Below are positions 12,951-63,962 of a DNA stretch of 64,000 nt, piece by piece. The first letter of the stretch is position 1. Each line of letters opens with the position of its first letter. The DNA is from a virus, in IMG/VR virus record IMGVR_UViG_3300031857_000076, positions 1-64,000 of that record, one strand, 5' to 3'. The position numbers were made by a program, and so were the translations under genes. The notes below the pieces were generated by a model. The model was given only the letters and a program-made list of their open reading frames with translations, was not told where the DNA came from and searched no databases.

Positions 12951-14699
12951 ATGCCTCCAACGCCATCGCCTACGCCAACGCCGCCGCCCACTCCGCCGCC
13001 AACGCCTCCGCCGCCGCCAACGCCTCCGCCGCCGCCTACTCCACCACCGCCTCCTACGCCGCCGCCTCCGCCAACGCCTCCACCAACCTATTATCCTTAC
13101 ACTGGAACAGATTGCAGCGGAACGCCTGTTACAATTTACACACTTAATAATTCCTTTAGTGTTAGTGATACTGCTTATTCAGACACCGCTAATCCAGCCC
13201 AACCCTATACTGGAGCTTTTGTTTATAATAATGCTTATTATACTTATACCTCTGGAAACGGGTCGCTTGTTACTAATACTTACGCCCATTCTGGAACAGA
13301 TTGCAGCAATGCTTCTGTAACGATTTACACAAACCAAAGCTCTTTTGCATATACCGATACTGCTTATACTAATCAATGTTTAACAACAACTTATACTGGA
13401 GACTTTATTCATAGTGGAAGCGTTTACGCATATAGCAATGGTGTTGGTAGTTTCAGTGGCATTCCTTATGTTTATTCTGGAACGAATTGCAGCGGTGGTG
13501 CTGCAACAATTTACACGGGATACAGTTCTTTTAGTTCTTCCGATACTGCATACAGCGATCAGTGTTTTAAAACGCTTTTTAGTGGCATTTTTATTCGCAG
13601 CGGAAATACCTATAAATATGTTGATGGCGTAGCCACACAATACTACGCTCATGTTGGAACAGATTGTAATGGCGGAAGCGTAACAATTTATACAGTCGCT
13701 AGTAGTTTTGCTTATACTGATACAGCATATTCAGACTGCAATATATCGTCTCTTTTTGATGGCACTTTTGTAAAAAATAATACGATCTATACTTACACTT
13801 CGGGTAGCGGAACAGCGGGGAATGCGACCCATGCTCATGCTGGCACAGATTGCAGCGGAAGCAGTGTAACAATTTACACAAACTCTAGCAGTTTTGCTTA
13901 TACCGATACTGCCTACAGTGATTTGTGCCAAACAACAGCTTACACTGGATATTTTATTCTTAGTGGAGCGGTTTATTCATACAGCAGTGGCACTGGAACT
14001 CCCGTAACTTCTTATTCCCACTCTGTAACAAATTGCAGTGGTGGTTCTATTACGATTTATACTAATGCTACTCCGTTTAGTGCCAGTGATACGGCCTATA
14101 GTAACCCATGCCTAACCACAACTTTTAATGGAGCCATCTCCAGTGGCGGTGGCATTTACAAGTATAGCAGCGGTGTCTCTACACAATACTACGCTCATGT
14201 TGGAATTGATTGCGACAGTGTTTCTACTACAATTTATACTAATAGCAATACGTTTAATGTTGGTCAGACAGCGTATGCCTCTTCTTGCATCTCCACACTG
14301 TATAATGGATATTTTATTTTTGCTAGTTTTACATATTCATATACTGATGGTGTTGGAGGCGCAAGTTCTTGTCCAAGTCCACCAACGCCTCCGCCAACAC
14401 CACCACCAACGCCTCCACCTTCGCCACCAACGCCGCCGCCGTCTCCACCAGCATATACCAATCCAAACATTTTACGAGCAGACATTCACTCAAGCTATGC
14501 GACTGGTTCTGGAACGTGGCAAACTTACCGAACCAATGTGACAGGTTTGTTTGTGGCAAATTCTGGAACCAACAGGTCAGACTATCGCGACCACGTTATC
14601 CGAGAATTTAATCGTAAAATTAGCGTTTTAAATCAGCCCACAGGCTTGTTTATCAAACCGTTTGACGATGGTTTTAGGTTTACGGGAGTTTCAATATAA
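12951..14699 (+). CDS. extensin-like Pro-rich protein with seven Cys-containing ~60-aa repeats; putative virion fibre or decoration
   Basis: N- and C-proximal (PTPPP)n tracts; repeat GTDCSG..VTIYT...F...DTAYSD; same unit begins the tail fibre at 41399. Confidence 0.7.
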   Translation: MPPTPSPTPTPPPTPPPTPPPPPTPPPPPTPPPPPTPPPPPTPPPTYYPYTGTDCSGTPVTIYTLNNSFSVSDTAYSDTANPAQPYTGAFVYNNAYYTYTSGNGSLVTNTYAHSGTDCSNASVTIYTNQSSFAYTDTAYTNQCLTTTYTGDFIHSGSVYAYSNGVGSFSGIPYVYSGTNCSGGAATIYTGYSSFSSSDTAYSDQCFKTLFSGIFIRSGNTYKYVDGVATQYYAHVGTDCNGGSVTIYTVASSFAYTDTAYSDCNISSLFDGTFVKNNTIYTYTSGSGTAGNATHAHAGTDCSGSSVTIYTNSSSFAYTDTAYSDLCQTTAYTGYFILSGAVYSYSSGTGTPVTSYSHSVTNCSGGSITIYTNATPFSASDTAYSNPCLTTTFNGAISSGGGIYKYSSGVSTQYYAHVGIDCDSVSTTIYTNSNTFNVGQTAYASSCISTLYNGYFIFASFTYSYTDGVGGASSCPSPPTPPPTPPPTPPPSPPTPPPSPPAYTNPNILRADIHSSYATGSGTWQTYRTNVTGLFVANSGTNRSDYRDHVIREFNRKISVLNQPTGLFIKPFDDGFRFTGVSI

Positions 14700-14700
14700 T

Positions 14701-14731
14701 AAAAAGGGCGGGATTTCTCCCGCCCTTTTTT
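14701..14731. terminator. bidirectional intrinsic terminator
   Basis: A5-GGGCGGGA-TTTC-TCCCGCCC-T6. Confidence 0.9.
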
Positions 14732-14737
14732 GTGATC

Positions 14738-15730: not shown

Positions 15731-15739
15731 AGTGCAGTT

Positions 15740-15767
15740 ATTATAGTTTGGTTTTAGGGTTTGTCAA
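15740..15767 (-). promoter_or_regulatory. sigma70-type promoter TTGACA-N16-TATAAT
   Basis: perfect consensus, 9 nt before ATG. Confidence 0.85.
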
Positions 15768-15770
15768 GAA

Positions 15771-25359: not shown

Positions 25360-26172
25360 TCAAGAAAGATTTTGGTAAGGTTTTTCGCGAAACCATTTTG
25401 TCAGAATGAATTTTTCTCCTTCTTCAACTGGCATTCCCCAATGCTTTGATTCAGGAATGTTTGAACCTTCTCTAGTGTTTTGCCAAAGAATCATTGTGCC
25501 AGTTTCGGGTTTTGTTTCCAAGTCTATTTCTGTGAATCTAGTGTGACCTCCTTTGGGAGTGTCATTCAAGTAAACCATTGCTGTCCAAGTGCGGTTGCCG
25601 TGTCGCTCTAGCTGTTTTTTTTGGTCATCACTAAGAGGAAAGAAAGAATCAAAATGAGGCTTAAATTGCTCGCCAACTTTGTAGTATTGGCCTTGAACTT
25701 GCTCGCTGTATTGCTCTGGAATGCCAACAATGTTTAAAATAGCATCTTCAATCTCAGCAATTGTGGGGTCAGAATTGCGGAACAAATGAGCAGTGGAGCT
25801 TGTGCGAAAGTCGGAAATCTTGCTGCCGCCGTTATCGTAGTCAATCACAGAAGATTTTTGGCAACGATTCTTGATGATTTCAATGGCGCGAGAACACTGG
25901 TCCTGTGTCAAAGCGTTCTTGATTTTAAAGATGTTTAATTTATCAGAGATTTTTTCTGCGCCAAATTTAGCAGTCAAATCTTCAATTTTAACGGGTGGAG
26001 AAATGCCTTCAACCTTTTTTAAGATGTCTGGCATGGAAAATTCTTGAATGATTAGGCTTTCATCAAAGCCTTTGTCAAGCAAAATTTGTGCCAATTCTCT
26101 CTTGGAGGAACCTCTCTTTACGTTGTCCCAAATCCAAAATTTCCAAGAATCGTCAAAACTGGTCTTTTTCAT
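25360..26172 (-). CDS. prolyl 4-hydroxylase-like 2OG-Fe(II) oxygenase
   Basis: RTSSTA, QGQYYKVGEQFKPHFD, RTWTAMVYLND...GG.T.F, H.G.PV..GEK...TKW. Confidence 0.85.
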   Translation of the reverse strand: MKKTSFDDSWKFWIWDNVKRGSSKRELAQILLDKGFDESLIIQEFSMPDILKKVEGISPPVKIEDLTAKFGAEKISDKLNIFKIKNALTQDQCSRAIEIIKNRCQKSSVIDYDNGGSKISDFRTSSTAHLFRNSDPTIAEIEDAILNIVGIPEQYSEQVQGQYYKVGEQFKPHFDSFFPLSDDQKKQLERHGNRTWTAMVYLNDTPKGGHTRFTEIDLETKPETGTMILWQNTREGSNIPESKHWGMPVEEGEKFILTKWFREKPYQNLS

Positions 26173-26206
26173 GCAAGAAGTACGGTTCCAAGGTGTAAAT
26201 ATTTCT

Positions 26207-26872
26207 GTGAAAATAGACAAGAAAGCTCGCGCCATCTTAAACTCTTTTCCCAAAGATGTGCAGGACTATTTTTACGAAATCAACGAAAAATGCGCAAAAC
26301 ATGGAGTCAAGTTTAGAGTTTCCAGCGGTTCTGTTGTTTATTCTGGAGGCGGGAGTTGCGGCGGTTTCTTCTCTGATTCTCCCAAGGAACTAGCCATTGC
26401 AGTGAATAAACCTTTAAAATGGGTCATTGCCACTCTTGTTCACGAAGATTCCCACTTTGATCAGTGGCTAAACCGTCAGTCTATATGGCACAATCAGAAA
26501 GTTTCGCGCAATTTTAATAGTTTTTTTGATTGGTTGCTCAAGATTAAAAACATTAAAAATCCCACAGAAACAGCAAAACATGTGATTGCTCTTGAGTCTG
26601 ACTGCGAGAGACGGTCCATCAAAAAAATAAAAAAGAGATGGTCGCACATTATTTCGCCCGAAACTTATGCTCAGTCTGCTAATGCTTACATGTTTTCCTA
26701 CTTGTATATGGCGCAATCGCGCAAGTGGATTTCTGAAACTATAGAGATTAAAAACAAATGTTTCTATAGGAATTTCCCGCAAAAAATCCTTAGTAAGTTT
26801 GAAAACTTATCAGAAGAGTATTTTGAGCTTTTTCAGCGCTATGACAAAAAATGCAAGAGCGGCTCAAAATAG
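26207..26872 (+). CDS. HExxH putative metallopeptidase
   Basis: LVHEDSH...E motif; GTG start 14 nt after GTGTAA. Confidence 0.65.
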   Translation: MKIDKKARAILNSFPKDVQDYFYEINEKCAKHGVKFRVSSGSVVYSGGGSCGGFFSDSPKELAIAVNKPLKWVIATLVHEDSHFDQWLNRQSIWHNQKVSRNFNSFFDWLLKIKNIKNPTETAKHVIALESDCERRSIKKIKKRWSHIISPETYAQSANAYMFSYLYMAQSRKWISETIEIKNKCFYRNFPQKILSKFENLSEEYFELFQRYDKKCKSGSK

Positions 26873-32361: not shown

Positions 32362-33285
32362 CTATTCTACAATGAGAAGGATTTTTGTCAAGGTTTCTTT
32401 TACCTCTTCTGCTGCTTTTTCTTTCCAGACTCGCAAACAATAGTCGCGAATTTCTGGCATTTGAAATTGAGTTTTTAGTGCGAGTTCTTGCTCATTACCA
32501 ATAATGCAATAAGGAGGTACGTCATAACCAGACATGGCAATGGTGTTTTTACACTCATAATCGAATAGAGTAAGAACGCTATAATTGAGAGCTTCATAGA
32601 ATCGGTTAGCCAAACAATTATAGTTGACATGGTTAATCTCGTCCTCAATGTAGAGACTAGAGTAGAAAGCAGAGAGTCCTTCTTTTGACCAGTTGATTCG
32701 ATCAATGAATGGGCCGTTGACCTCAATTGCGTTAAATTTTTCACGGTTTTTTTGGTGTGTTGAAACAGTTACTTTGCCTTTTAAATATTTACGGAATGAG
32801 ACTTCGCGATTCTTGCGAAAAGAACCATAATAAATGCATCCTTCTTTTGGGGCCGTTGTTTCTTTGGGGTCAAAAACTAGACAGTTCAAATTAACAAAGT
32901 GCCAACCGTTCAAATATTTTTCTACGATTTTAGAAATGCTGCCACCATGATTGGCAATAACTTCGTAGCGACGACCTTCTTTCACTCCCATCCACAAAGC
33001 TCTTGGTTCGCCAAGGTTGTATTCGTTTGTGATGTAAAAGATTTTTGCTTCTGGACTAGCTTTTAGCCAAGCGTAGTCAACGTAAGAATAGTGACTTGCA
33101 TGATTAAAAATGATTCGGTCATAGCCACCTTTAATGTTGTCGTTGACTGTTGGATAGCTCCAGATGAGGTCAGCCTCATGGCCGCTTTGAATCAAAAAGT
33201 CTTTGATCTTTTTGGCATTTAGCCAGTGAAGATTTTGAGGTTCTTTCAGCGAACCTTTGTGAGAATCAATAATTAAATATTTCAT
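32362..33285 (-). CDS. T4 beta-glucosyltransferase-like GT-B enzyme
   Basis: IYYGSFR, LYIED, ANRFYEAL, LFDYE line up with T4 BGT IYGGSFR, LIIGD, TLRVWETM, LIDEE. Confidence 0.65.
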   Translation of the reverse strand: MKYLIIDSHKGSLKEPQNLHWLNAKKIKDFLIQSGHEADLIWSYPTVNDNIKGGYDRIIFNHASHYSYVDYAWLKASPEAKIFYITNEYNLGEPRALWMGVKEGRRYEVIANHGGSISKIVEKYLNGWHFVNLNCLVFDPKETTAPKEGCIYYGSFRKNREVSFRKYLKGKVTVSTHQKNREKFNAIEVNGPFIDRINWSKEGLSAFYSSLYIEDEINHVNYNCLANRFYEALNYSVLTLFDYECKNTIAMSGYDVPPYCIIGNEQELALKTQFQMPEIRDYCLRVWKEKAAEEVKETLTKILLIVE

Positions 33286-44390: not shown

Positions 44391-45578
44391 ATGATAAAAT
44401 TGATTCCTTTTGCGAATTTAAACTTAAAAGAAATTAATAAAGCCTCTTTAAGAGTATGGTATAGCGATCATGATTATGAAGATTTATTTTTAGACCCTAG
44501 CAAAATTAGGCAAGATCATTTTCAAATGCCCAAGAAAGAATTTGACAAATGTGCATTTTTGGTATTAATCGTAGAATACAAAGATGGGTCAATTCAAAAA
44601 TTTAGAAGAAGCGATAAATATGAATGGCTTAATGGCCAAAAACCCAAGAACATTCAGTTCTATTTAAGAAAGAATGAAAACTCTTTTTATGATGATAGCG
44701 ATTTTGGCAAAAAAACCGTTTTAAAAATACTAGACGCTCGCTTCTCAAAAATTCAAAATTGCTCAAAAGAAACGGTTGGAACTAAAAATTTAATATACTA
44801 TGCTGTTGGCGGAGATTTAAATTATCTAAACTTATTAGACACTTCCATTAATTCGATTGTTGATTTAGCAAGCGAAAAGAGTTTTGAGTTTTTATTTATA
44901 TGCCCCGAATCTTGGCAATCTAAAATTAGAAATTTAGACGGATTAAGGGGTATTAACTATCATTTTCACACAGTAGATGACTCAACTGACGGCGTTGAAA
45001 TCTCAAAAAATAAAACGAAGATTTATGATTTTGATAAAGTTAATGAATTCGCAAAAATTCTTTTTATTGATAGCGATGTGATTGCTATTAAAAATATCAA
45101 TGAAGTATTTGATCTTGAAATCAAGAACGGCAAACTATACACAGCATATAGCGAAAAAATTATTAAATTAGATTCTCACTTGGGTCAATATCACGGCATA
45201 GTGAAAGACGATGTATTCTATAAGAGAATATGTGAAAATCAACAAATGCCATTTAATGCTGGTCAGTTTTTATTCATGAACTGCGAGTTGATGAAAGAGC
45301 ATTTTTATAATGTCAATTGGCTGATGAAATCGTGGCCAAGTGAATACTTTTTTGAGCAAGCATTCATGAATTACTATTTTTGCAACTATAATTTAACCGA
45401 ATATGTTACTTTTAATAGTAAGGTAAAAATTCATTCCGCCATAGATCAAAACAAATCTAGGTACAATCCTGAAATAAAAGACTCAGATGTTTTGATACAT
45501 TTCATCGGTCCTTGTTTGGAGCCAATCGCAAAATCAAACTTCATCAAAGAATATTCTCATGCCTATTTGTCAAGATAA
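44391..45578 (+). CDS. glycosyltransferase, GT8-like (GT-A)
   Basis: ILFIDSDV DxD motif, FNAG, EQAFMN, IHF.G. Confidence 0.85.
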   Translation: MIKLIPFANLNLKEINKASLRVWYSDHDYEDLFLDPSKIRQDHFQMPKKEFDKCAFLVLIVEYKDGSIQKFRRSDKYEWLNGQKPKNIQFYLRKNENSFYDDSDFGKKTVLKILDARFSKIQNCSKETVGTKNLIYYAVGGDLNYLNLLDTSINSIVDLASEKSFEFLFICPESWQSKIRNLDGLRGINYHFHTVDDSTDGVEISKNKTKIYDFDKVNEFAKILFIDSDVIAIKNINEVFDLEIKNGKLYTAYSEKIIKLDSHLGQYHGIVKDDVFYKRICENQQMPFNAGQFLFMNCELMKEHFYNVNWLMKSWPSEYFFEQAFMNYYFCNYNLTEYVTFNSKVKIHSAIDQNKSRYNPEIKDSDVLIHFIGPCLEPIAKSNFIKEYSHAYLSR

Positions 45579-46149
45579 AAAATTAGCTTTTATACATATT
45601 CCGAAAACTGCTGGAACCACAATTGAAACAGCTTTGGGCATGAAAACTATTAATAATTTCTATAATGAATATAAGTTCAAACACTATTGCGTTTGTCCGC
45701 AGCACTTGACATGCGAAGAACTATCACATGAAATTGACTTAGCCGATCTTGAACTATTTACAATTGTTCGAAACCCCTATGATAGATTGGTTTCTGAATA
45801 TAACTATATTCAGAATAACGAATGGCTATTCAAACTCAAACACGCAACATTTAAAGAATTTATTAAACTAATTCCAAACTTGGACCAAGTAGAGAGAAAA
45901 TACATTTTTGATGGTCACTTAGAGACTCAGAGTTCCTTTGTTAAAGGTTATGAAGACAGAATCAAAATCTTTCATTACGAGAAAATAAATGAATGTTTTG
46001 ACTATTTAAATTCTAAATATGGTCCGCTAGAATTTGGACTCGAAAGAAAACCAATTGAGAAAAAAAATATTAAATGGACGAAAGAACTAAAAAAAATAGT
46101 TCAATCAGTTTACGCAGAAGACTTTGATAGATTTAATTATAAAATGTAA
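45559..46149 (+). CDS. sulfotransferase (Sulfotransfer_2-like)
   Basis: FIHIPKTAGTTIE; VRNPYDRLVSEY. Confidence 0.88.
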   Translation: MPICQDKKLAFIHIPKTAGTTIETALGMKTINNFYNEYKFKHYCVCPQHLTCEELSHEIDLADLELFTIVRNPYDRLVSEYNYIQNNEWLFKLKHATFKEFIKLIPNLDQVERKYIFDGHLETQSSFVKGYEDRIKIFHYEKINECFDYLNSKYGPLEFGLERKPIEKKNIKWTKELKKIVQSVYAEDFDRFNYKM

Positions 46150-46392: not shown

Positions 46393-46504
46393 GTTTTGGA
46401 ACCTTGTTGTATTGCTTCTTTAAACGTCTATAAACTCTTTTGTTGATAGCGTTATCTTCTGCGTTAGTGATTGCTCTAAGTTGTTTTGCGATTGTTTTTC
46501 TCAT
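46298..46504 (-). CDS. small basic hypothetical protein
   Basis: ORF with ATGA coupling. Confidence 0.55.
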   Translation of the reverse strand: MRKTIAKQLRAITNAEDNAINKRVYRRLKKQYNKVPKHARKDFIEATKQFYELVQKQSREPVAETGQE

Positions 46505-46956
46505 ATTCTTTTGATATACGATTCTGAATCTTTTTTAAAACCCATTTTTTGATAAATTTTCTTTAACTTATTAGATGTTGGATAGTTTTCAACACAGTTC
46601 ATGATAACATATTCTATGCCTCTTTTTTGGGCAAATTTAATTGCTGTCTTGTATAAGGCAAATGATTTTTTTGGATTTTTACTAACCCAACAATATTCAG
46701 TAAACATTCTTTTGCCTAAAAATGGATGCATACCATCCATAAACATAATTAAGCCATCCACTTGATTATTTTCAAAATTTGCCCAACAGTGAATACTATT
46801 ATTTAGTAACGCTGGATGAGCAAATGAATCAATGACACATTGAGGATTGATCGGCAAATATGCGTGTCCATATTTGGAGTTTTCCTCTTTAAAAATAGAC
46901 TCTAAATCTCTGAAAGCTTTTTCAAACTTTTGAGCAGATATGACTTTTTCAATCAT
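46501..46956 (-). CDS. GNAT-like protein
   Basis: E..W; LKKIYQKMGFK motif. Confidence 0.6.
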   Translation of the reverse strand: MIEKVISAQKFEKAFRDLESIFKEENSKYGHAYLPINPQCVIDSFAHPALLNNSIHCWANFENNQVDGLIMFMDGMHPFLGKRMFTEYCWVSKNPKKSFALYKTAIKFAQKRGIEYVIMNCVENYPTSNKLKKIYQKMGFKKDSESYIKRI

Positions 46957-47687
46957 TTTGTCACAAGGGACAATAGCTTACGGCTTTCTTTAATTGGAAT
47001 ATCTTCGAAAGAGTTCCAATTTGCAGCCTCTTCATTCTTATAGGTTTCGTCTTTCCACATCTTCCTCAAATGCTTTTTGAAAGCTTCAAAATCTGCGCAG
47101 CCAAGATTTTGTTTAGCTGCATTCTTGAGAGCGTTCTGTGGTGTTAGCGATTGAACAATTGCTTCGCTTTCCTCATAAGCGACCTTGTTTTTAGACTTAT
47201 CAATTTCATCATCACCAACAATATGAATATTGAGATAATTGCGAACAGCGCGAACAAAAGCGCGATTTTCAGCGATAGTCTCAAGAAACTTAATGCCAAA
47301 GCCTGAACAGTTGTCAAACGTGGCGTTTGCGGTGCTGCTGAAAATTTGGGAAATTCCATTTGTTTCATAGTTTGGCATCCAACGAATTTCGCAAACCGCT
47401 GTTGCGTAATTTGAAGATACAGTGTTAATTGTATAACGAACAGTTTCAAGACCACGAAAACGAGCTAGTTCTTTGATGCCTGCAAGCTTAATAAGAAGCT
47501 GATGATCACCAAGACCTTCAATTGAATCTGGCATTTGCATTTTACGAGTTTCAAACCAATCCTTGTTAGGATATAAATGCTCTGGTTTGATCATTGCTCG
47601 CCAGTTAATTGAGCCGTCTTCATTGAATTTATATTCAACGCCTTCGATAAGGCCCATTTCGTTACGCTTGTATTTGTTAGGATTCAT
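46953..47687 (-). CDS. putative single-strand annealing or recombination protein
   Basis: IAENRAFVRAVR resembles the AETRA..RA.R motif of phage SSAP-like proteins. Confidence 0.4.
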   Translation of the reverse strand: MNPNKYKRNEMGLIEGVEYKFNEDGSINWRAMIKPEHLYPNKDWFETRKMQMPDSIEGLGDHQLLIKLAGIKELARFRGLETVRYTINTVSSNYATAVCEIRWMPNYETNGISQIFSSTANATFDNCSGFGIKFLETIAENRAFVRAVRNYLNIHIVGDDEIDKSKNKVAYEESEAIVQSLTPQNALKNAAKQNLGCADFEAFKKHLRKMWKDETYKNEEAANWNSFEDIPIKESRKLLSLVTK

Positions 47688-48840
47688 AAATAAAATAGTG
47701 ATCTAAATCTGTCCAGAATGATTCATTATAGATCACATCTGATGCTCTGTCAACAAAAACTTGATCACAATCAACATGAGCTTTGGAAGGATAACGCTTG
47801 CCGCTGGAAAAAATATCCTTTTTGGTCAAAAATTTCAAATTTGGAATTTGAGATAGCTCACTTACTCTTTCTTGATTTGGTGGTTCGTCAAGTTCAACTC
47901 TAAAATCAAAATAAAAATTACGAATCTCTGCTAACTCTTCTTTATTTTTAGTTGAACAAGAAATATCTAAACCCAAGTTCTTGACTGATTCTAAATATTC
48001 TTTGGAAAAGTCTTTTGTGTTTTGGATTTGAAAAGTGATTTTTTTGATATTGTTTTTGCACTGAGCTAAGAGATTAGTCTCAATTGGTTGACTCGCTATA
48101 ACGTGGCAAGCATAGTTTGAGCACCAAGCAAGTAGATTGTTTTCATTATGAAAATAATCCATTCTGATATTGATGAGTCTATTTTTTAATTCTTCGGCAA
48201 AGCCATAAAAGTCTGGAATGATTTCAACAACAGCTTGTGAATAAAGTTCGCCAATGAATTTGGTGTTGATGCTTTTTGTGTATGGCACATTTAACAATTC
48301 ACACACATTTTTAACAACATCTTCTGGCTTAATGGTATTGATTGATTTGGGCTTTTCGTGATAAGTGTAGCTTGGTTTACGGCCACCGCGATCAGCCTCT
48401 AAGATGCGAACTTTGCTTGGAGTGCTCCAATACGGATTGGCATGGCTTGGATAAATGTGAGAGTAAAGAACAACAATTGGCACATCAAAAGCGCTCGCTT
48501 GATGAACAGGAAAACTATCAATTCCCAAATGAAGGCTTGAATTCTTAACAATGTATGATGTTTGCTTTCTGGAGAAACCAAGGAAAGCTTTGTCAACAAG
48601 AGGCAACTGAGGATCATCGCCGCCGCCAATTTGATAAATTTTGTATCCAAGTGGTCGCAGCAAATTCTTCAAAAGCTCAATAACTTCTGGAAAGAACTCA
48701 TAAAATTTTGAGTCAATTTTGTTATCCACATGAACCGTGATATATTTATCGTCAATCACAGGAATGTAGTGGGTGGGGAAAATTGGTTTGCCGATTTTTA
48801 CCCCTAAACTTTTAGCGTATTCTTGTATTAAATGACTCAT
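47677..48840 (-). CDS. glycosyltransferase, GT9-like
   Basis: YQIGG, HLGIDSFPVH.A, P.V.LY. Confidence 0.75.
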   Translation of the reverse strand: MSHLIQEYAKSLGVKIGKPIFPTHYIPVIDDKYITVHVDNKIDSKFYEFFPEVIELLKNLLRPLGYKIYQIGGGDDPQLPLVDKAFLGFSRKQTSYIVKNSSLHLGIDSFPVHQASAFDVPIVVLYSHIYPSHANPYWSTPSKVRILEADRGGRKPSYTYHEKPKSINTIKPEDVVKNVCELLNVPYTKSINTKFIGELYSQAVVEIIPDFYGFAEELKNRLINIRMDYFHNENNLLAWCSNYACHVIASQPIETNLLAQCKNNIKKITFQIQNTKDFSKEYLESVKNLGLDISCSTKNKEELAEIRNFYFDFRVELDEPPNQERVSELSQIPNLKFLTKKDIFSSGKRYPSKAHVDCDQVFVDRASDVIYNESFWTDLDHYFIYES

Positions 48841-48841
48841 A

Positions 48842-49234
48842 TTAATCTCCTTTTTCAATGCGAATAGAATCGCTATCCTCATGGTGAGTGGAAAACTCAA
48901 TAATTTCTGAATTTTCCAAAGCTAATAGGCGATGCCGCAAACCAACTGGAACATGAAAAATATCTCCTTCATAAAGCTCTTGCATGATAGCTGCATTTAT
49001 ATCGTTGCCAGTTCCATAATAAAGAACAACAGAGCCTTTGTTCACATAGAAGGTTTCAGTTTTCTTTTCGTGGTAATGCCAAGAAAGCTTTTTTCCTTTA
49101 AAAAGAAAAAGAAGTTTGCCGCAATAATCATCGCGATTTACTAACCATTTTTCATATCCCCATCCTTTAGGGACATAGTGTGAAGTTTTGCATCCTTCTT
49201 TAATGAAATTGCAATTGAGTTCGGTCTTTTCCAT
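48842..49234 (-). CDS. cupin (mannose-6-phosphate or sugar isomerase-like)
   Basis: VPKGWGYE, SWHYH..K.ETFYV, HR, EFST. Confidence 0.8.
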   Translation of the reverse strand: MEKTELNCNFIKEGCKTSHYVPKGWGYEKWLVNRDDYCGKLLFLFKGKKLSWHYHEKKTETFYVNKGSVVLYYGTGNDINAAIMQELYEGDIFHVPVGLRHRLLALENSEIIEFSTHHEDSDSIRIEKGD

Positions 49235-51089
49235 TATGTTGATAGGTAAAATGTCTTTGTGTTGTGATGAAAGGTAAGAACGCTAGTTCAAAATATCCTT
49301 TGTGCTCACCTTGCCCTTCCAAGAAAAGAAGATTGTCAAAGATTGGCGAATATGGTAAAATTTTGTGAACGCATGGATGCTCATCTACAATCTCAAAAAA
49401 CTGTGGCAGCGTAATAAAGTAAATATGATGGTCTGGATAAAGTTCTTGCAAATTTTCTAGCAACGCATTCACCATTAATACGTCACCAGCAGATTGAGGC
49501 ATAACAACAGCAATTCTTTTTCCTTCATCATCTTTATCCAAAACATCTCCAATATCAATTGTTTTGGGTTCAATTTTAGCAGCAGTATTTTTAAAATGAT
49601 TTAAAACTTGCTCTCTATTAAGGTCTGATTTGAGCCTTTCAATCCAATGCAAGCAGCCTTGATGATTGCGATCAACTGTTTCTCCAAGAATATTCTTGTA
49701 TAAGTCAATGATCCATTCACAATTATCTTCAATATTTGGAGGTTGATAGTTGGGATTTTTAACTCTCTCTTGAATGCTCCAATCTTCAACAAAAGGCGCA
49801 TTATCAAACATCTCTTCTAATTGCTTGCAAACAACCTCAATAGAGCAATGATTGATTACAAAATCTCTGGCCTTTTTGCCAATTTCAGCACGTTTTTCAG
49901 GCTTCATATTGTAAACTTTTTCTAATTGTTTACAAATGCTAAATGCACTGGTTGATGCCTTAATAAATTGAGTTCCTGGCTCACGATACTCTGACCAATC
50001 CAAGGGCAAGCCTCCACTCTCATCTGTGCAGTAGTCTTCGCCGCAAGAATAATTTGTAACAAGCGTGATGAGTTCAGCGAGTTTGGCTTCTTGAACAGGA
50101 ATCTCTTGTCCTCCGCTTGTGAATGGATGACAATAAACATCCATAAGATTATAAACCTCATTCAATTGAGCCTCATTGACTCCATGAACAATATTGGTTG
50201 TGGAAACGCTTTTTTGAGCTTTGCAGTATGGACAGTTCAAGTCTTGGCCCTGATATGGCTTAATTTCGTATTGGCGGCAATTCTTGCAGAAGTATGTTGT
50301 TAAAACATCAGAATTGTCAATATTCTTTTCTCTCAAGAGTCTTGGAATATCCCATCCCTCCATCCAGTGAGTATGAAGCAATAGCTTGGGTTTTGATTCT
50401 GGATTTTTTGCTTTGAATTCACAAAAACCATCTAAAAGATTTGGGACGCTTTTTCTAAGCTGATTGCGAAACACAAACCCAATAATAAAGTTATCTTTGA
50501 TATTGAATTTTTTTCTCAGGTCGTTTTTAATTTTTGGACCAAGGTTGTAGAACTGGTTGACATCGAGAGTTCCAGGGAGTGTTCTCACATGGCCATATCC
50601 CATCTCTTTTAAAGCCTTTTCTGCGAACGAGGCCCATACAAGATAGTTCTTGACCTTTGGCGCTGCATCAACAGCGTCAGGAAGGATTGGAAGCGAATCT
50701 AGCGTGGTCCAAATGATTGAGGTGATGTGATTCCACCAAGGCTTGTCACAAAAACCATTAAAGGCCCAAATATCTTCAATGCCAAGATAAACATCTGGCT
50801 TTAATTTTTCAATAGCATTGTCAATGCCGTAAGCACCATAATGGGCCGCTCTTTCTTTTCCAGCGTCTCCCTTAATTTGTGCCATGACATTTGGATTTGG
50901 CATGGAACCATAGCACTGCCAAGGTTGAAACTTACAATCTGGCGCATCCCAAGGCAAGCCATTAGCGAATTCTATGAGTTCATATTTGCCAGTTTCATGC
51001 AGTTTGCGTAAAATGTTTTTATTATTTTTCCCGAAGCCAGTAAAGAGTCGCGAAAAATTAGTATGAAATAGAATTCTTTTTTTTCTCAT
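49200..51089 (-). CDS. glycosyltransferase GT4 with C-terminal GT9-like domain
   Basis: TGFG, FRNQLRK, YNLMDVYCHP..SGG.EIP..EA; SAGDVL. Confidence 0.85.
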   Translation of the reverse strand: MRKKRILFHTNFSRLFTGFGKNNKNILRKLHETGKYELIEFANGLPWDAPDCKFQPWQCYGSMPNPNVMAQIKGDAGKERAAHYGAYGIDNAIEKLKPDVYLGIEDIWAFNGFCDKPWWNHITSIIWTTLDSLPILPDAVDAAPKVKNYLVWASFAEKALKEMGYGHVRTLPGTLDVNQFYNLGPKIKNDLRKKFNIKDNFIIGFVFRNQLRKSVPNLLDGFCEFKAKNPESKPKLLLHTHWMEGWDIPRLLREKNIDNSDVLTTYFCKNCRQYEIKPYQGQDLNCPYCKAQKSVSTTNIVHGVNEAQLNEVYNLMDVYCHPFTSGGQEIPVQEAKLAELITLVTNYSCGEDYCTDESGGLPLDWSEYREPGTQFIKASTSAFSICKQLEKVYNMKPEKRAEIGKKARDFVINHCSIEVVCKQLEEMFDNAPFVEDWSIQERVKNPNYQPPNIEDNCEWIIDLYKNILGETVDRNHQGCLHWIERLKSDLNREQVLNHFKNTAAKIEPKTIDIGDVLDKDDEGKRIAVVMPQSAGDVLMVNALLENLQELYPDHHIYFITLPQFFEIVDEHPCVHKILPYSPIFDNLLFLEGQGEHKGYFELAFLPFITTQRHFTYQHNGKDRTQLQFH

Positions 51090-51090
51090 G

Positions 51091-51549
51091 TTATTCTGAG
51101 GCTTGGGCTTTTGATTCAAAAATTTTAACTAGGCAGGTTTCAAGAAACACTCTTAGAGCTTCTGCTTCTGAAAGCTCTACACCCATGCCAAATTTTTGAT
51201 TGCCGTTGCGAGAAACAGAGAACGAGAAGGCATCTGCGCCATCTTTCTTTTTGTATCGAGTCCAAGAGATTTGAGTTTTATTTTCTTCAAATGAGTGAAA
51301 AGCTTTCCATTCGCCATAAGTGCGAATTGCATGAATCAATCCACCAATCTCATTTTCGTTGAGCTTAATGGCTATGGTCTTTTCAGGGTTCTTTTGGTTG
51401 CCAGAAAATGATCCATTTTTTGTTTGCTCATTCCAAGAGAATTGTTGAATACCGTTTACATAAACGGTTGGTTGTCCTTTGGAAGATAGTTGGAAAGAAA
51501 AGGCGCAACCAGTATTTTTGCTATTTGGCTTGTAGAAGGCGAGATTCAT
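51091..51549 (-). CDS. conserved phage protein, possibly Whirly/PC4-like ssDNA-binding
   Basis: FYKPN..TG.A.SF; KL...EIG. Confidence 0.45.
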   Translation of the reverse strand: MNLAFYKPNSKNTGCAFSFQLSSKGQPTVYVNGIQQFSWNEQTKNGSFSGNQKNPEKTIAIKLNENEIGGLIHAIRTYGEWKAFHSFEENKTQISWTRYKKKDGADAFSFSVSRNGNQKFGMGVELSEAEALRVFLETCLVKIFESKAQASE

Positions 51550-53167: not shown

Positions 53168-53413
53168 TTATTGAATTTGAACAACTCTTGTTTCTTTTGG
53201 CTTTTGAGGAATCCTGATTTCTAGGATGCCATCTTCAAGTTTAGCAGAAGTGCTGGTAATCTCATAAGCTTGAGGAATAGTTTCTGCAAGATAACTCGAA
53301 CCATACTTTTCGCTATTTGCTGAAATGATTAAGTAGCGGTTATCGAATTCGATTTGAATTTCGTTTTTCTTATATCCAGGCGCTTGGATTTCTAATACTA
53401 GGTCTTCTTTCAT
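53168..53413 (-). CDS. small heat-shock protein (Hsp20)
   Basis: PGYKKNEI, AKLEDGILEIRIP, VQIQ. Confidence 0.85.
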   Translation of the reverse strand: MKEDLVLEIQAPGYKKNEIQIEFDNRYLIISANSEKYGSSYLAETIPQAYEITSTSAKLEDGILEIRIPQKPKETRVVQIQ

Positions 53414-54480
53414 AGGTGAGAGATGATTTGGTTAAGAGTGTTTTCGTAGGTTAGTTCTTTGGAGAGTTGAATGCCAGCCTCGTTAACTGTTCCAACTTTT
53501 TGCTCTGCTCTTTCAAACGCAGAAATCACAGATTCCTTACTCCAATTCCACATATTTCCTTGATTATACATGTCATTTTCGCGGAAGAAAACTCCATCAT
53601 AAATTGGAATCATACCATTAGGTTCAACAAGAATAGTGTTGGTTTCATTGGCCCAATCTTTGTGAGCGGTTGCATTCAAGACAATTGACCACTTACCTAA
53701 ACAAGTAGCATTGAAAGCTGGCAAGTTCCAACCTTCTGCTCCACTCAAGCCAGTGAGGTCAATGTCAATAGCATTGAGAAAATCATTGACTTCCGCATTG
53801 GTTTGAAGGAATGGCAAGAAGTTGATGTTGCTATACCTCTTTCCTCCAAGAACAGAATCATAAATCTGCTTCATTTGCTCATGCGGCAAGAATGGATTTG
53901 TAACGCAGCAACTTAACAAGTAGCGTGGATTATTACCATATTTTTCTAGCCAAGTTTGAATGATTTTAGCAGTATGTTTGCGATTTTCAAACTTGCCCAT
54001 GAGTCCAAAGTGAATTCTTTCTGGCAAGTATTTTTTACCAGTGACATGAAAGGTTTGGTCAAATCCAAGTTTATATGAGGCGATGTTTTCGCAACCTTCT
54101 TTCCTAAAGGCATTTGCGGCATAATCTCCACAAAATAGAGTTTTTGTCTGTAGATTGGAGAGGGCTTTTTCAACAAATGTTGGTTGAGACGCTTCGTAAA
54201 AAGTAATTAAATATTGCTTTTCAGTTTTGCGATTATCGCTACCGTTTAGATGCCAAAGTTTCAAACTTGGCACTTCTTTCTTCAAGTATAAGAACCGATT
54301 ATTAACTGCGTTTTGAAGCCAATTGGAGAACTCTGGTTCAAGATTGTGAGCAGATGGGTCAACTTTTCCAATGGGGAAAAGACCAACTTGCATATTTTTG
54401 CGCCACATCTCGCGCAGTAGATTAATTGCCACATTTCCAAAGGAAAGGGAATTAATTGGAGCTTCAACAATTAATTGCAT
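53410..54480 (-). CDS. glycosyltransferase GT4-like
   Basis: GKFENRK; SGAEGWNLP. Confidence 0.85.
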   Translation of the reverse strand: MQLIVEAPINSLSFGNVAINLLREMWRKNMQVGLFPIGKVDPSAHNLEPEFSNWLQNAVNNRFLYLKKEVPSLKLWHLNGSDNRKTEKQYLITFYEASQPTFVEKALSNLQTKTLFCGDYAANAFRKEGCENIASYKLGFDQTFHVTGKKYLPERIHFGLMGKFENRKHTAKIIQTWLEKYGNNPRYLLSCCVTNPFLPHEQMKQIYDSVLGGKRYSNINFLPFLQTNAEVNDFLNAIDIDLTGLSGAEGWNLPAFNATCLGKWSIVLNATAHKDWANETNTILVEPNGMIPIYDGVFFRENDMYNQGNMWNWSKESVISAFERAEQKVGTVNEAGIQLSKELTYENTLNQIISHL

Positions 54481-54934: not shown

Positions 54935-55501
54935 TTAATTATTGTTTAATTCGTGTTTAATTTCCTTGATGAACCTATTGTGAATATTAATGCATCCTTG
55001 TATTGATAATTTCAATTTTTTTGCAATTCTTTTCCACGGTGTTAGTTTATTCTTTTTGCAATCTCTATAACGCATTTGAATAATTTTTCTTACCCTTTCA
55101 TCGTGGTATTTGTCTGCCTTATCATAAATCAGTGAGATGATTTCTTGGTTAATATACTCGCCAATATAATCTTTGTCAACTAAATGTTCAGACAAATCAC
55201 CAACATCACAGTATTCATACTTTTTAACCTTGTTATGAATATTCAAGCATTTCCATTTTATTTCGTTGCCTAAATAAGTTGAAAACTTGATTCTTCTGTT
55301 GGGGTCAAACTTTAGAGCCTTCTCATAGATGAAAAGGTCTTTATCGTCAATAATATCGTTTTTATTGATATTTGACTGATCAGAAATTGTTTGGTTAACA
55401 ATCTGTAAATAAATTCCAGAGTGTTTTGCGATCAATTCTTTTAAACAACTTTCGTTGTTATTTATTTTGATTTCTTCGATAAGGGATAAGTCGTCTGCCA
55501 T
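54935..55501 (-). CDS. phage sigma-70-family factor (candidate late sigma)
   Basis: ALKFDPNR.IKFSTYL; C-terminal HTH WKRIAKKLKLS. Confidence 0.75.
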   Translation of the reverse strand: MADDLSLIEEIKINNNESCLKELIAKHSGIYLQIVNQTISDQSNINKNDIIDDKDLFIYEKALKFDPNRRIKFSTYLGNEIKWKCLNIHNKVKKYEYCDVGDLSEHLVDKDYIGEYINQEIISLIYDKADKYHDERVRKIIQMRYRDCKKNKLTPWKRIAKKLKLSIQGCINIHNRFIKEIKHELNNN

Positions 55502-56076
55502 TGTGTGATTTCCTCCGAGTCGAAGCATTGTTCAAAAATAGCCCAGCTATATTCAGAAAGCGAGAATGGATTGTCTTTTTCCTTGCTTTCTTCTACTGTT
55601 TGCCAAACATAAGACAAGTTGGCTTGTGCTTGTAGAATAGGGTCATTTTCAAGCTCTTCTGAATTTGCTGGTTTGATGAGATTGTTTTCTTTGTCAAGCC
55701 TCGCAATATGAATAAGAAAGCCATTTTTTTGAATCCAATCAGCCTCGTTCTTGTATCGAACGTCAGAAATGATTGCGATTTCGTTATTTTTTAAATATGA
55801 AGAAAGAGTATCAATCCAGCAGTTCTCATTGAGCGCTCTGCGAATATGCGTGCCATAAGCAACAAGAAATGGACGAATCATTTTCTTTTCGTCATCATTT
55901 TGAGTGAAGGAGTCTAATCCAGTTTTCTTTTTAAGAAATGGTCGCACTTCTCTCTTTAGCTCATCTGCAAAAGCATATCTCTTGGCTTTGATGCCAAGAT
56001 GTTTAAAAATTTTTACAAAGTTGTTGGCAAGAGTGTCTTTGCCACTTCGGGCTACTCCTGAAATTCCAATAATCAT
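55462..56076 (-). CDS. deoxynucleoside monophosphate kinase
   Basis: GISGVARSGKDT, FADELK, ISDVRY.NE. Confidence 0.88.
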   Translation of the reverse strand: MIIGISGVARSGKDTLANNFVKIFKHLGIKAKRYAFADELKREVRPFLKKKTGLDSFTQNDDEKKMIRPFLVAYGTHIRRALNENCWIDTLSSYLKNNEIAIISDVRYKNEADWIQKNGFLIHIARLDKENNLIKPANSEELENDPILQAQANLSYVWQTVEESKEKDNPFSLSEYSWAIFEQCFDSEEITQWQTTYPLSKKSK

Positions 56077-60821: not shown

Positions 60822-60836
60822 TTAGAAAATTCTTTA

Positions 60837-61121
60837 TTGTTTCGTATTATCCTAGTGATCGAACAGATTCTAGGTGTTATTTATACGTTCTGCTTCTCAG
60901 TCTGCTACATTCCTCAAATCTCCAAAAGTTTGAGGACAAAAAATGTGCAAGACGTTAGCGTTGGCATGTTTATTCTTTCAATAATTGGGTATGTCTCAGC
61001 AATGGGATATACCCTTTTGCGTGTTGGATGGGATTTTTGGTGGATAGTAAATTATTTTTGTGGCCTAGTTTCTGCAACAGTCATGGTGGCAATTTATTAC
61101 ATTTACAAAAAACATGTTTAG
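60837..61121 (+). CDS. PQ-loop / SemiSWEET-like transporter
   Basis: YIPQI.K..RTK...DVS; three TM helices. Confidence 0.8.
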   Translation: MFRIILVIEQILGVIYTFCFSVCYIPQISKSLRTKNVQDVSVGMFILSIIGYVSAMGYTLLRVGWDFWWIVNYFCGLVSATVMVAIYYIYKKHV

Positions 61122-61884: not shown

Positions 61885-61885
61885 C

Positions 61886-62584
61886 ATGGATAATTTAATT
61901 AAATTATCTTGTCCATCCGAGGGGTTAGGTGATACGTTAATACTTACTTGTATTTGTAAGCACTTGCTTGCAAATAATAAAAAACCAATTGTTTCATTGC
62001 CTGCTAAAATAAAAAGGTTTTCTATTTTATTTGATGGCATCGCTGATGTTATAATAGAAGACGTTAATCAATATTTGCCCGATCTTGGTGGGGGTCACTA
62101 TGCTACACGAAAACTAAGAAATTTTTTTCAACATGCAGAATTATTAGATAATAGACCTTTAGTTTTACATTCAAATCAAGAATCAGAAATTTGGACTGCA
62201 AATTATCTTATCAATAAGATTAATCCAGTAATTTTTGTGCCGCATTGTGCAAAACAGTGGCATGAAGTAAGAAGCTTAAAGGTTGATAGTTATGAGCAGT
62301 TATTTGATAAATTAATTTCTGATGGCTTAACTCCAATTATTTGTCAAAGCTCTAGTAATCCAGTTTCTATTAAATATGAAAATATTTTAACAGACTTGGA
62401 ACTGAGTAAATATATTTGCTTATTGAGAAAAGTGGGCCTTTATGTTGGATGCAATACTGGAGATATGCACTTGGCTATTTCTGTTGGCGCTCATTGTCAA
62501 GTTATTCAGCCACAAAATCATCCACTATTCAATGCAGATGAGTGGAATTACAATCATCCATCAATTACATATTATCAATTATGA
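61886..62584 (+). CDS. glycosyltransferase GT9-like
   Basis: GLGD.L; YVGCNTG.MHLA. Confidence 0.8.
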   Translation: MDNLIKLSCPSEGLGDTLILTCICKHLLANNKKPIVSLPAKIKRFSILFDGIADVIIEDVNQYLPDLGGGHYATRKLRNFFQHAELLDNRPLVLHSNQESEIWTANYLINKINPVIFVPHCAKQWHEVRSLKVDSYEQLFDKLISDGLTPIICQSSSNPVSIKYENILTDLELSKYICLLRKVGLYVGCNTGDMHLAISVGAHCQVIQPQNHPLFNADEWNYNHPSITYYQL

Positions 62585-62928
62585 TCACAATTTTAGTAGA
62601 TGAGGGGTACGCTTATGATTATTTAGCCATCCTTGCGGTTAAACACAAAATATTCAATAATGAAAAAACCCTTACCGCAAGAACTTTATGTAATGAACAT
62701 ATCCTGAATCAAATACCAGAAGACCAACATATTAAAATTGTGCGTTCTCAAGAATTTAAAAATTTAATTGACGCTAATTTTAAAACTTTTGAAGCTGTAG
62801 AAGAAGCTCGTTATGGAAAGATTTCCGCAAAAGAAGTGGACGATTTAAATATGAAAAGGTATTATTGCAAAGTGGCTTTACAAAATAAATTTTTCCCCGA
62901 TATACAAACTACAGAACTTAAATCATGA
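62581..62928 (+). CDS. DUF6165-like helical protein
   Basis: I.V..G...D...IL.VK...N..R...K. Confidence 0.55.
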   Translation: MITILVDEGYAYDYLAILAVKHKIFNNEKTLTARTLCNEHILNQIPEDQHIKIVRSQEFKNLIDANFKTFEAVEEARYGKISAKEVDDLNMKRYYCKVALQNKFFPDIQTTELKS

Positions 62929-63962
62929 AAACAATTATTATAACTGGTATTACTGGTCAAGATGGCTCGCTGATGGCAGACCATCTGCTAAAAGACCCAA
63001 ACAACTTTGTTTACGGGGCGCATAGACGCTTGAGTGTTCCAAATCATCAAAACATTGAAAATATCAAGAACCACGAAAGATTTAAATTGTTAGAGTTGGA
63101 CCTTACTGATGCGGAAAGCATTAATCAAGCAATTAGAGAAATCAAGCCAGATTACTTCATCAACTTCGCTGCAAACTCTTTTGTTGGCAATAGTTGGAAG
63201 ATGCCAATTAATCACATGCAAACAAACTGCATGGGAGTGCTTCATTGTCTTGAAGCTATTAGAAACCTTTCTCCAGAAACTAGATTCTATAATGCTGGCA
63301 GCAGCGAACAGTTCGGAGATGTTGCATATTCTCCACAAGACATCAACCATCCATTTCGTCCAAGATCGCCATACGGCGCTTCTAAGTGCGCTGCGCATCA
63401 TTTGGTAAAGGTTTACCGAGAGTCTTATGGCATTTATGCTGTTCAAGGAATCTTATTTAATCACGAAGGCGTTCGTCGCGGAGAAGAGTTCGTAACGCGA
63501 AAAATCACTAAAAATGTAGCAAGAATCTATAACGCCAAAAAAAGTGACGAATCTTTCTTGCCAATGGAGCTTGGCAATGTTGACGCCAAAAGAGATTGGA
63601 GCGATGCTCAAGATTTTGTGCGCGGTGTTTGGCTGATGCTTAATCAAGAAAAGCCAAAAGACTATGTTCTCTCTGCTAATGAAACTCACTCAGTAAGAGA
63701 ATTTATTGAACTAGCCTTCGAAGCTGCTTCTATTGAAGGTGAGTGGATTGGCAACGGTTTAGATGAAGTTTTTATTGACAAAAACACGAAACAAAAGCTT
63801 GTAGTAATTAATCCAGCTTTCTATCGTCCAGCAGAAGTTGATCTTCTTTGGGGTGATTCGACACCAGCAAGAGAAGAGCTTGGCTGGATTCCAAACACAT
63901 CTTTCTCGCAACTTGTTGAGAAAATGGTTGCGCGAGACTCAGGTTGGCCTTACATTAATTAA
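62925..63962 (+). CDS. gmd: GDP-mannose 4,6-dehydratase
   Basis: ITGITGQDG, SSE.FG, PRSPYGASK, GILFNHE..RRGEEFVTRKIT, LGN.DAKRDW, YRPAEVDLL.GD. Confidence 0.95.
   Translation: MKTIIITGITGQDGSLMADHLLKDPNNFVYGAHRRLSVPNHQNIENIKNHERFKLLELDLTDAESINQAIREIKPDYFINFAANSFVGNSWKMPINHMQTNCMGVLHCLEAIRNLSPETRFYNAGSSEQFGDVAYSPQDINHPFRPRSPYGASKCAAHHLVKVYRESYGIYAVQGILFNHEGVRRGEEFVTRKITKNVARIYNAKKSDESFLPMELGNVDAKRDWSDAQDFVRGVWLMLNQEKPKDYVLSANETHSVREFIELAFEAASIEGEWIGNGLDEVFIDKNTKQKLVVINPAFYRPAEVDLLWGDSTPAREELGWIPNTSFSQLVEKMVARDSGWPYIN

Follow-up and report, generated by a model that had tools for sequence, protein, structure and literature searches.

A proline-rich tail-fibre appendage and a prolyl 4-hydroxylase found together in one clade of large phages: gene content and candidate modification enzymes

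Background

The closest described systems are the chloroviruses, whose self-encoded glycosylation of the capsid offers a precedent for viruses that modify their own virions (PMC11571054), and the mycobacteriophages Che8 and Rita, whose virion glycosylation was described by Freeman et al. 2023 (as cited in PMC11256854). Here we analyse a 64,000-nucleotide (nt) stretch of viral DNA, hereafter the window, which comprises bases 1-64000 of a single linear 91,625-bp IMG/VR viral contig (IMGVR_UViG_3300031857_000076; CheckV completeness 66%) and encodes a collagen-type prolyl 4-hydroxylase (P4H), a tail fibre with a tract of proline, serine and threonine, and a set of glycosyltransferases (GTs) and sulfotransferases. 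A first-pass annotation had proposed that these enzymes form one pathway by which the phage hydroxylates, glycosylates and sulfates its own fibres, and we report how that proposal compares with the gene content of related viruses.

In plants and algae, hydroxyproline-rich glycoproteins (HRGPs) are built on a Ser/Thr-Pro(3-5) repeat motif and carry O-glycans on hydroxyproline (Hyp). In the bacterium Cellulomonas fimi, (PT)n linkers of CenA and Cex connect small binding modules with the larger remainder of the protein, and O-glycosylation of some PT-linkers occurs in the native host. To our knowledge, a few mycobacteriophages and giant algal viruses are the only cases in which self-glycosylation of virions is established, and we know of no protein hydroxylation or sulfated glycan on bacteriophage virions. 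Phage sulfotransferases reportedly turn up in papers on auxiliary metabolic genes. The combination of a viral P4H, the GDP-mannose dehydratase Gmd and GTs is already known from chloroviruses, as are self-glycosylated virions from mycobacteriophages; our literature search found no paper linking a phage P4H to Pro-rich virion proteins.

Results

A low-complexity fibre tail and a P4H occur in the same clade

A profile of the tail protein gpJ retrieved 53 viral loci. The gene after gpJ was visible in 30 clade-A contigs, with gpJ at least 48% identical, where it encodes a homologue of the tail fibre, and in all 30 it begins with a low-complexity N-terminal tail of 25-137 aa. This proline/threonine/serine (P/T/S) tail is Pro-rich in 25 loci, with (PT)n, (PTPS)n, (PPTT)n or (PTPPP)n repeats, Thr-rich in three and poly-Ser in two. 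None of nine outgroup loci, with gpJ 26-47% identical, has such a tail, which is missing both from the G032 lineage and from clade B, where gpJ is giant (963-2892 aa in seven tail regions). In the clade-B contigs L167-L173, gpJ is fused with distal fibre regions, reaching up to 2892 aa, and lies directly convergent with a conserved GT block.

Most clade-A fibres begin directly with the tail, starting M-PTPTPT, which is therefore a free appendage rather than a linker between two domains. In the window the fibre (996 aa; 41399..44389, plus strand) opens with a single Cys/Tyr/Thr-rich domain of about 57 aa (41399-41575), which stands ahead of the tract only in this phage, a sister contig and L033. 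The Pro/Ser/Thr tract follows at residues 60-116 (41576-41746; CPSPPPSPTPSPPSPPSPPTPPPTPPP...), and beyond it come a shaft and a repetitive C-terminal part, rich in Gly, Asn and Ser, which is absent from the 600-700-aa fibres of relatives. The fibre of the sister contig is 94% identical apart from a tract seven residues longer, a difference in length that suggests repeat slippage.

The identification of a P4H at 25360..26253 (minus strand) was borne out by a PF13640 match (1.2e-14) and by similarity to four P4Hs of solved structure. A phmmer search of PDB aligned residues 93-294 with human collagen P4H (C-P4H) alpha-2 (3.7e-23) and B. anthracis P4H (~3e-22); the human, B. anthracis and Chlamydomonas enzymes together span 4e-23 to 8e-21, and the P4H of the chlorovirus PBCV-1 (5c5t) matches at 4e-7. 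The ligands of iron and 2-oxoglutarate (2OG) are intact, H200-F-D202, H271 and K286 aligning with the PHFD, H and K of human C-P4H, and by these conserved residues the enzyme appears catalytically competent. As its relatives begin at Met28 (26172), the true start is probably 26172 and the product about 270 aa long.

All 13 clade-A loci that cover the syntenic site encode this P4H. It is absent from clade B and from G032, a complete 165-kb relative (CheckV 100%) whose gpJ is 47% identical and whose fibre has no tail. Twenty other contigs that carry a relative of the T4 beta-glucosyltransferase (BGT)-like gene described below, four of them at least 90% complete, all stayed below the PF13640 family cut-off, with one weak sub-threshold match. 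A third element, the cassette marked by the 2OG-oxygenase-like protein P0126, is present in all four clade-A contigs covering its site and absent from the G032 lineage; nine clade-B contigs (30-86 kb), which do not cover the cassette site, contain neither a P0126 homologue nor a Sulfotransfer_2 gene. Set against the complete G032 genome and the sampled clade-B contigs, the P4H, the P0126 cassette and the P/T/S fibre tail are thus all found only in clade A. The lineage sulfotransferase ST1 and the core GTs are also encoded where tails are lacking. The link between the P4H and the Pro-rich fibre thus gains real comparative support, and this is the main new argument for the proposed fibre modification.

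Proline tracts in the repeat protein P0001 and a motif in gpJ

A six-frame scan of the 91.6-kb contig found three long Pro tracts in two proteins only, placing the extensin-like tracts exactly where they had been described in the fibre and in open reading frame (ORF) 12951. The latter encodes P0001 (582 aa; 12951..14699), a modular protein on the plus strand that is alone between minus-strand genes. It starts with MPPTPSPTPTPPPTPPPTPPPPP..., its first PTPPP tract occupying residues 2-46 (12954-13088), and continues with eight Cys/Tyr/Thr-rich repeats of about 60 aa (13089-14360), a second Pro tract at residues 474-501 (14370-14453) and, at the C-terminus, a conserved domain of about 80 aa (14454-14696). 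The repeat unit of about 57 aa, YxHxGTDCSGxxVTIYT...DTAYSD.C, is common to P0001 and the N-terminus of the fibre. A full HMMER scan of 1.84 billion representative proteins returned just eight relatives, in which one to eight repeats are accompanied by linkers rich in PT or T. The conserved domain is present in five (at the C-terminus of four, and in a divergent form at the N-terminus of one), and the remaining three lack it or are apparently truncated.

The repeat is predicted as a small beta domain (pLDDT >90), and no confident prediction was obtained for the terminal domain. Foldseek against PDB gave nothing for the repeat at E<=0.001, VIA-align reached only Z<=4.4 on a low-confidence helical part, and a PHROGs search assigned neither P0001 nor the fibre to a family. 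P0001 adjoins a host-like DUF1549/DUF1553 and DUF1501 gene pair, and is plausible as a virion-attached adhesin.

A further tract, said to lie at the N-terminus of gpJ, turned out to be a 21-residue conserved motif, GGGPDAPPPPTPPTFKPPKLG (37273-37335), whose prolines are invariant across six aligned gpJ homologues. Similar motifs are kept in relatives and clades that have no P4H; this is therefore a structural motif and not an extensin-like repeat.

Upstream of P0001 we observed AAGTGTAAA-N8-ATG, an arrangement that also precedes ORF 17805 and the tail gene at 83499. More generally, AAGTGTAA(A/T) lies 8-10 nt ahead of the start codons of several long ORFs (including P0001, ORF 17805, DUF5824 and a tail gene), at window positions 12937, 17791 and 59772 and contig positions 83513 and 72713. 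In total, GTGTAA is no commoner than expected by chance, but its placement before starts is striking; the element looks like a candidate promoter for leaderless mRNAs.

Sulfotransferases, GT8 and a swappable cassette

All three sulfotransferases named in the first-pass annotation reach the cut-off of PF03567 (Sulfotransfer_2; 22 bits), and each has both a PKxxS/T motif and, in the form RNPxDxxxS, a version of the RNPxxRxxS motif, which we take to be the 5'-phosphosulfate and 3'-phosphate binding motifs of sulfotransferases that use 3'-phosphoadenosine 5'-phosphosulfate (PAPS). ST1 (33545..34213, minus strand; 4e-18, 66.9 bits; VPKNASTS, VRNPFDRTVS) is a core gene of the lineage, present in 11 of 11 searchable clade-A contigs with a P4H relative and in G032 and G034, and absent from clade B. 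ST2 (45559..46149, plus strand; 1.5e-12, 48.6 bits; IPKTAGTT, VRNPYDRLVS) lies behind the fibre. ST3 (51564-52202, minus strand; 2e-4; IPKTGGSS, LRNPFDQVTS) scores 22.0 bits, exactly at the cut-off, and Gln replaces the second Arg of its RNPxxRxxS motif.

Between the fibre and ST2 is a GT8 glycosyltransferase (44391..45578, plus strand) with an N-terminal extension of about 130 aa; PF01501 matches its residues 139-374 (4e-11; 43.4 bits against a cut-off of 24.3), and its DxD motif is FIDSDVI (DSD). The tight spacing noted earlier was confirmed, GT8 beginning 1 nt past the fibre stop and overlapping ST2 by 20 nt, and by this spacing both genes are translationally coupled to the fibre gene. The only close GT8 relative in IMG/VR is in the sister contig; 92 wider homologues lie on contigs of up to 240 kb. 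In this phage GT8 and ST2 arrived along with the extra C-terminal fibre region of about 360 aa, a pattern compatible both with a module dedicated to modifying the fibre and with a moron that closes the operon.

A second 2OG oxygenase had been proposed beside a sulfotransferase. The neighbour, ST3, stands; for P0126 itself (52181-52741, minus strand) the signals are an HxD...H...R pattern, a weak AlkB match (0.0056), nearest named Atlas clusters of PF13640 at 0.90 and a PHROG labelled ferrochelatase, with no Pfam match and no phmmer match in PDB, so that the oxygenase assignment is weakly supported. P0126 marks a variable slot (51564-52741) inside a conserved GT block, where it is always kept while its neighbours change. 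Its partner is ST3 here and in L256, two GT2 genes and a sulfotransferase in L258, and in L257 a protein with weak nucleotide-sugar-transferase and methyltransferase matches together with one ORF that has no match; three of the four cassettes therefore contain a sulfotransferase. Such swapping among close relatives is typical of a surface-exposed variable glycan. The equivalent slot of G032 holds homing endonucleases only, and in that genome (L087) the GT block is interrupted by GIY-YIG and NUMOD homing endonucleases at 12195-13397, 15552-16286 and 18286-18978.

The core GT block, a BGT-like enzyme and the supply of sulfate

Convergent with the tail-tip genes lies a conserved block on the minus strand (46501..51549). 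It comprises a GNAT-like gene (46501-46956), a gene of unknown function (244 aa; 46953-47687), a GT9-like gene (407 aa; 47677-48900) whose only match is to RfaQ at E 0.0035, a clear cupin that is a variable member of the block (48842-49234), a GT4-like gene (639 aa; 49200-51119) matching the glycosyltransferase family phrog_2170 at 2e-16, and a second gene of unknown function (152 aa; 51091-51549). A further GT4-like gene (356 aa; 53410..54480, minus strand) matches phrog_2170 at 2.2e-10 and has a 47% identical homologue in G032, so both GT4 enzymes of the first-pass annotation were recovered as GT4-like. In clade A, clade B and G032 alike, homologues of the block members other than the cupin adjoin the tail tip, and across clade A the core GTs are 75-92% identical, a conservation like that of gpL. 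At the far end of the window, a plus-strand sugar-nucleotide cluster contains weakly matched GT2-like (61114-61884) and GT9-like (61886-62584) genes, both at E ~0.007, a gene of unknown function (62542-62928), an unambiguous Gmd (62925-63962; 1.7e-112) and an FkbM-like methyltransferase (contig 63838-64533) that runs past the window end; the GT2 and the two GT9 assignments are accordingly weaker than the rest.

Two genes from ST1 is P0125 (307 aa; 32362..33285, minus strand), a GT-B enzyme modelled with AF2 at pLDDT 91.9. It has no Pfam match and no phmmer match in PDB; six of its seven best Foldseek matches are T4 BGT (1nzd, 1qkj, 1c3j, 1j39; E 1.5e-9 to 2.8e-9), with TMq 0.67-0.69 against ~0.5 for other GT-B enzymes. 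Homologues occur in clade A and clade B but not in the G032 lineage, and the family, which is highly conserved, extends to 276 IMG/VR viral contigs, most of them without P4H, and to 446 database proteins, all unnamed.

The APS (adenosine 5'-phosphosulfate) kinase reported earlier was not found: PF01583 gave nothing at E<=1 in a six-frame search of the 91.6-kb contig, with a control that was positive in 14 of 14 genomes. The P-loop gene at 55462..56076 (minus strand) encodes a deoxynucleoside monophosphate (dNMP) kinase (PF21448, 1.7e-10) and is the likely source of that reading.

The tail tip, the lineage and its probable host

The window genes describe a lambda-like tail tip on the plus strand, with gpL (35226-36242; PF05100, 2.7e-32), a JAB-type, gpK-like protein (36184-36621; PF14464, 1.1e-11), a gpI-like protein (36618-37226) and a gpJ of 1388 aa (37228-41394; PF13550, 6e-13). 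A promoter and terminator scan of 34-47 kb gave no more signals than chance, so the operon structure rests on spacing alone. Fusion of gpJ to the fibre by recoding was considered and rejected, as relatives differ in the reading frame of the fibre start relative to the gpJ stop.

The contig belongs to a clade of large phages with this gpL-K-I-J tail tip, which probably infect Verrucomicrobiales. It carries its own replication and nucleotide genes (ribonucleotide reductase, ThyX, dUTPase, dNMP kinase, single-stranded DNA-binding protein, DnaB, primase and a split Pol III), and a megablast of the tail region against 50,697 GenBank phages gave zero matches, indicating no close GenBank phage at the DNA level. 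The DUF1549/DUF1553 (PSCyt2/PSD1) and DUF1501 pair at 9866-12875 (minus strand) is typical of the Planctomycetes-Verrucomicrobia-Chlamydiae group. Its DUF1501 protein is most similar to those of Verrucomicrobiales, Verrucomicrobiia and Opitutae metagenome-assembled genomes (43-45% identity), Planctomycetes coming next (33-38%), and because of this proximity a verrucomicrobial host is a reasonable, moderately supported and unproven guess. A 2.6-kb contig binned as Crocinitomicaceae (L198) contains a 97%-identical fragment and is probably a mis-binned piece of phage.

Several further features were recorded. A matrixin-type metallopeptidase (Peptidase_M10, 5.6e-11) and an Amidase_2 endolysin lie at window 4726-5322 and 8010-8762 (both minus strand). 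ThyX (window 28032-28709, minus strand) occurs as two types only ~30% identical that are interchanged at one position among close relatives (L011, L013, L092 and G032). A 219-aa protein amid the structural genes (contig 80929-81588; L001 17929-18588) matches PHROG 3704 'ferredoxin' at 1e-52, and LAGLIDADG genes are found on this contig (71912-72697) and in L256.

Discussion

A possible route to a modified fibre

We tentatively favour the view, while rating it at rather less than an even chance, that the fibre tails are hydroxylated by the P4H and then glycosylated and sulfated by an accessory set of enzymes, yielding a strain-variable whisker. For its first step taken alone, action of the P4H on the tracts of the fibre and P0001, we consider the case evenly balanced. 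A cytoplasmic, clade-specific P4H would hydroxylate prolines of the PTPPP-type tracts in both proteins before assembly, thereby making a polyproline-II stalk stiffer and supplying hydroxyl groups as acceptors. GT8 and ST2, together with the swappable P0126 cassette (sulfotransferase, GT2 or methyltransferase-like), would then decorate Hyp, Thr or Ser of the tract, drawing sulfate from host PAPS and sugars from phage or host nucleotide sugars. The product would be an anionic, strain-variable, mucin- or extensin-like fibre appendage, and the Thr-rich and poly-Ser tail variants fit such an O-glycosylation acceptor. The core GT block, ST1 and the BGT-like enzyme probably serve another acceptor, because they are present in relatives without P/T/S tails. 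Taken to its full extent, to the claim that the N-terminal fibre whisker and P0001 constitute the first known Hyp-containing, O-glycosylated and sulfated phage virion protein, built by the phage in the cytoplasm and diversified by the cassette, the proposal becomes rather unlikely, and mimicry of algal glycans by the fibre is pure speculation.

A number of observations weigh against a modified fibre, and the original idea of a single pathway survives only in part, namely in the link between P4H and tail. The P4H gene sits in an early-looking nucleotide-metabolism block (ThyX, UvdE, a sigma factor and a kinase-like gene) and not among late genes, and its co-occurrence with the tail, being confined to one clade, amounts in effect to one evolutionary event. 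Three independent cultured phages, Erwinia Y3, Salmonella Sen-NF and Microcystis Mel-JY01, carry P4H-like genes and no PPPxPPP tracts, so the association is not general. The contigs with Thr-rich or poly-Ser fibres (G018, G020 and G028) are too short to reach the P4H site, and searching viral sequences with the Thr-rich fibre recovered just the two contigs already known to carry it. Clade-A contigs with Thr-rich tails include 3300042887_004279 and 3300034061_006697, and 3300047564_005382 has a poly-Ser one. Only this phage and its sister contig place GT8 and ST2 behind the fibre; in 16 other clade-A loci that position is free of GTs and sulfotransferases, and a fibre of 430-1080 aa gives way directly to the convergent block or to further fibre genes. 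Relatives that lack P/T/S tails likewise possess the core GT block (46501-51549 and 53410-54480) and ST1, so that the target of these GTs cannot be the tail alone, and at least one of the presumed sugar genes, P0125, may by its modelled fold act on DNA. Neither APS kinase nor ATP sulfurylase is encoded in the 91.6-kb contig, which leaves the host, or the third of the genome that is missing, as the source of any PAPS. PT-rich tracts are, moreover, common as unmodified linkers. Finally, a chlorovirus review reports that no hydroxyproline was detected in the virions of PBCV-1 and that its P4H has no known role (PMC7019647).

Alternative targets

The same genes might instead remodel the host envelope, a reading that we regard as possible but doubtful: the GTs, sulfotransferases, Gmd, cupin and FkbM-like methyltransferase would alter lipopolysaccharide (LPS), capsule or exopolysaccharide, so as to block superinfection or keep progeny from sticking to debris, and the P/T/S tails would be plain spacers. 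GT8, GT4 and GT9-like enzymes belong to families typical of LPS and capsule synthesis, and the GT8 homologues carry a generic LPS-biosynthesis name. The conservation of the GT block in clades without tails, the classic moron position of GT8 and ST2 (in two contigs only), the presence of the host-like DUF1549/DUF1553 and DUF1501 envelope genes, and the resemblance of the swappable cassette to O-antigen locus variation all point the same way. However, Pfam, PHROGs or NCBIfam scans of about 100 ORFs identified no flippase, polymerase, initiating transferase or membrane protein of the GtrA/B type; no integrase was seen, and the phage, with replication genes of its own, looks lytic. The degree of conservation of the core GTs within clade A is unusual for accessory morons, and envelope remodelling offers no reason for P4H and cassette to be confined to the one clade whose fibres have P/T/S tails.

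It is less probable, and on balance unlikely, that the parts are unrelated, the tails serving, without modification, as spacers of a flexible or polyproline-II kind for a binding module, the P4H acting on some other phage or host protein (a translation factor, for example) and the sugar enzymes having separate targets. Widespread PT linkers would make such spacers unremarkable, and in this phage and L033 the tail does join a small Cys-rich domain to the fibre in the manner of a module and its linker. The P4H-like genes of the Erwinia and Salmonella phages adjoin asparagine synthase in replication regions of phages that have no Pro tracts, and this, the early gene block around the P4H of the window and the PBCV-1 precedent cited above are what would be expected of a P4H with another substrate. 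Against this stand the position of the tail at the extreme N-terminus of the fibre, without a preceding module, in most clade-A phages, and the restriction of the P4H to that clade.

Hypermodification of DNA, in which P0125 and perhaps other GTs would glycosylate phage bases against restriction after oxygenases had made a hydroxylated base, is very improbable, for although P0125 has a predicted fold clearly closer to T4 BGT than to other GT-B enzymes and is highly conserved, and a T4 gp1-type dNMP kinase, a dUTPase/dCTP-deaminase-like gene and ThyX are present, neither a ThyA-type hydroxymethylase (PF00303) nor a TET/JBP oxygenase (PF12851) was found at E<=1 in the 91.6 kb (~66% of the genome), the P4H is a homologue of protein hydroxylases and not of TET/JBP, the sulfotransferases are of the carbohydrate type without known role on DNA, and G032 keeps the core GT block without the BGT-like gene, so that one enzyme at most would be explained.

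Were the fibre tails hydroxylated and decorated, phages would have a new route to adhesive or shielding appendages, the long-puzzling viral P4H genes would have a visible substrate, and the phage sulfotransferases treated as 'auxiliary metabolic genes' would become directly testable. If the host envelope is the target instead, the locus still illustrates in compact form how phages of an under-studied phylum remodel glycans, adding sulfate and varying from strain to strain. With a clade-wide P/T/S tail, a P4H found in that clade only and a swappable cassette, at least 30 contigs are available as a concrete system for tests.

Comparison with known systems

PBCV-1 resembles this phage in encoding a small collagen-type P4H (A085R), Gmd and soluble GTs able to work without the host secretory pathway. 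It differs in its eukaryotic host, its N-linked capsid glycans and its lack of known sulfotransferases, whereas the candidate P4H substrate of the phage is an obvious tract in a tail fibre. In mycobacteriophages, cytoplasmic phage-encoded GTs decorate the phage's own structural proteins, to which the GT8 placed 1 nt behind the fibre is a likeness in gene order; there, however, it is capsid proteins that are glycosylated, the part of the account available to us mentions neither hydroxylation nor sulfation, and most GTs of the present phage are not next to their presumed acceptor.

The phage tracts share Ser/Thr-Pro(3-5) repeats and a P4H of the same family with the plant and algal HRGPs (extensins and pherophorins), which is a functional analogy only and not membership. 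The phage has no secretory pathway, and its repeats are PTPPP, PT or PTPS, not SPPPP with Tyr cross-link motifs; Pfam, PHROG and NCBIfam matches named no Hyp-glycosyltransferase of GT77, GT95 or GT31, families whose profiles were not searched directly. T4 BGT (GT63) and P0125 are alike in predicted fold, with no detectable sequence similarity and no hydroxymethyl-base pathway found in the 91.6 kb. The PT-linkers of the C. fimi type have (PT)n and PTPS runs like those of the phage tails, but belong to secreted proteins, whereas the phage tract is usually the free N-terminal tail of a virion protein assembled in the cytoplasm and co-occurs with a P4H. What is new compared with all of these is a phage clade that combines a Pro-rich candidate acceptor on the fibre, a P4H found only there and swappable cassettes that contain sulfotransferases.

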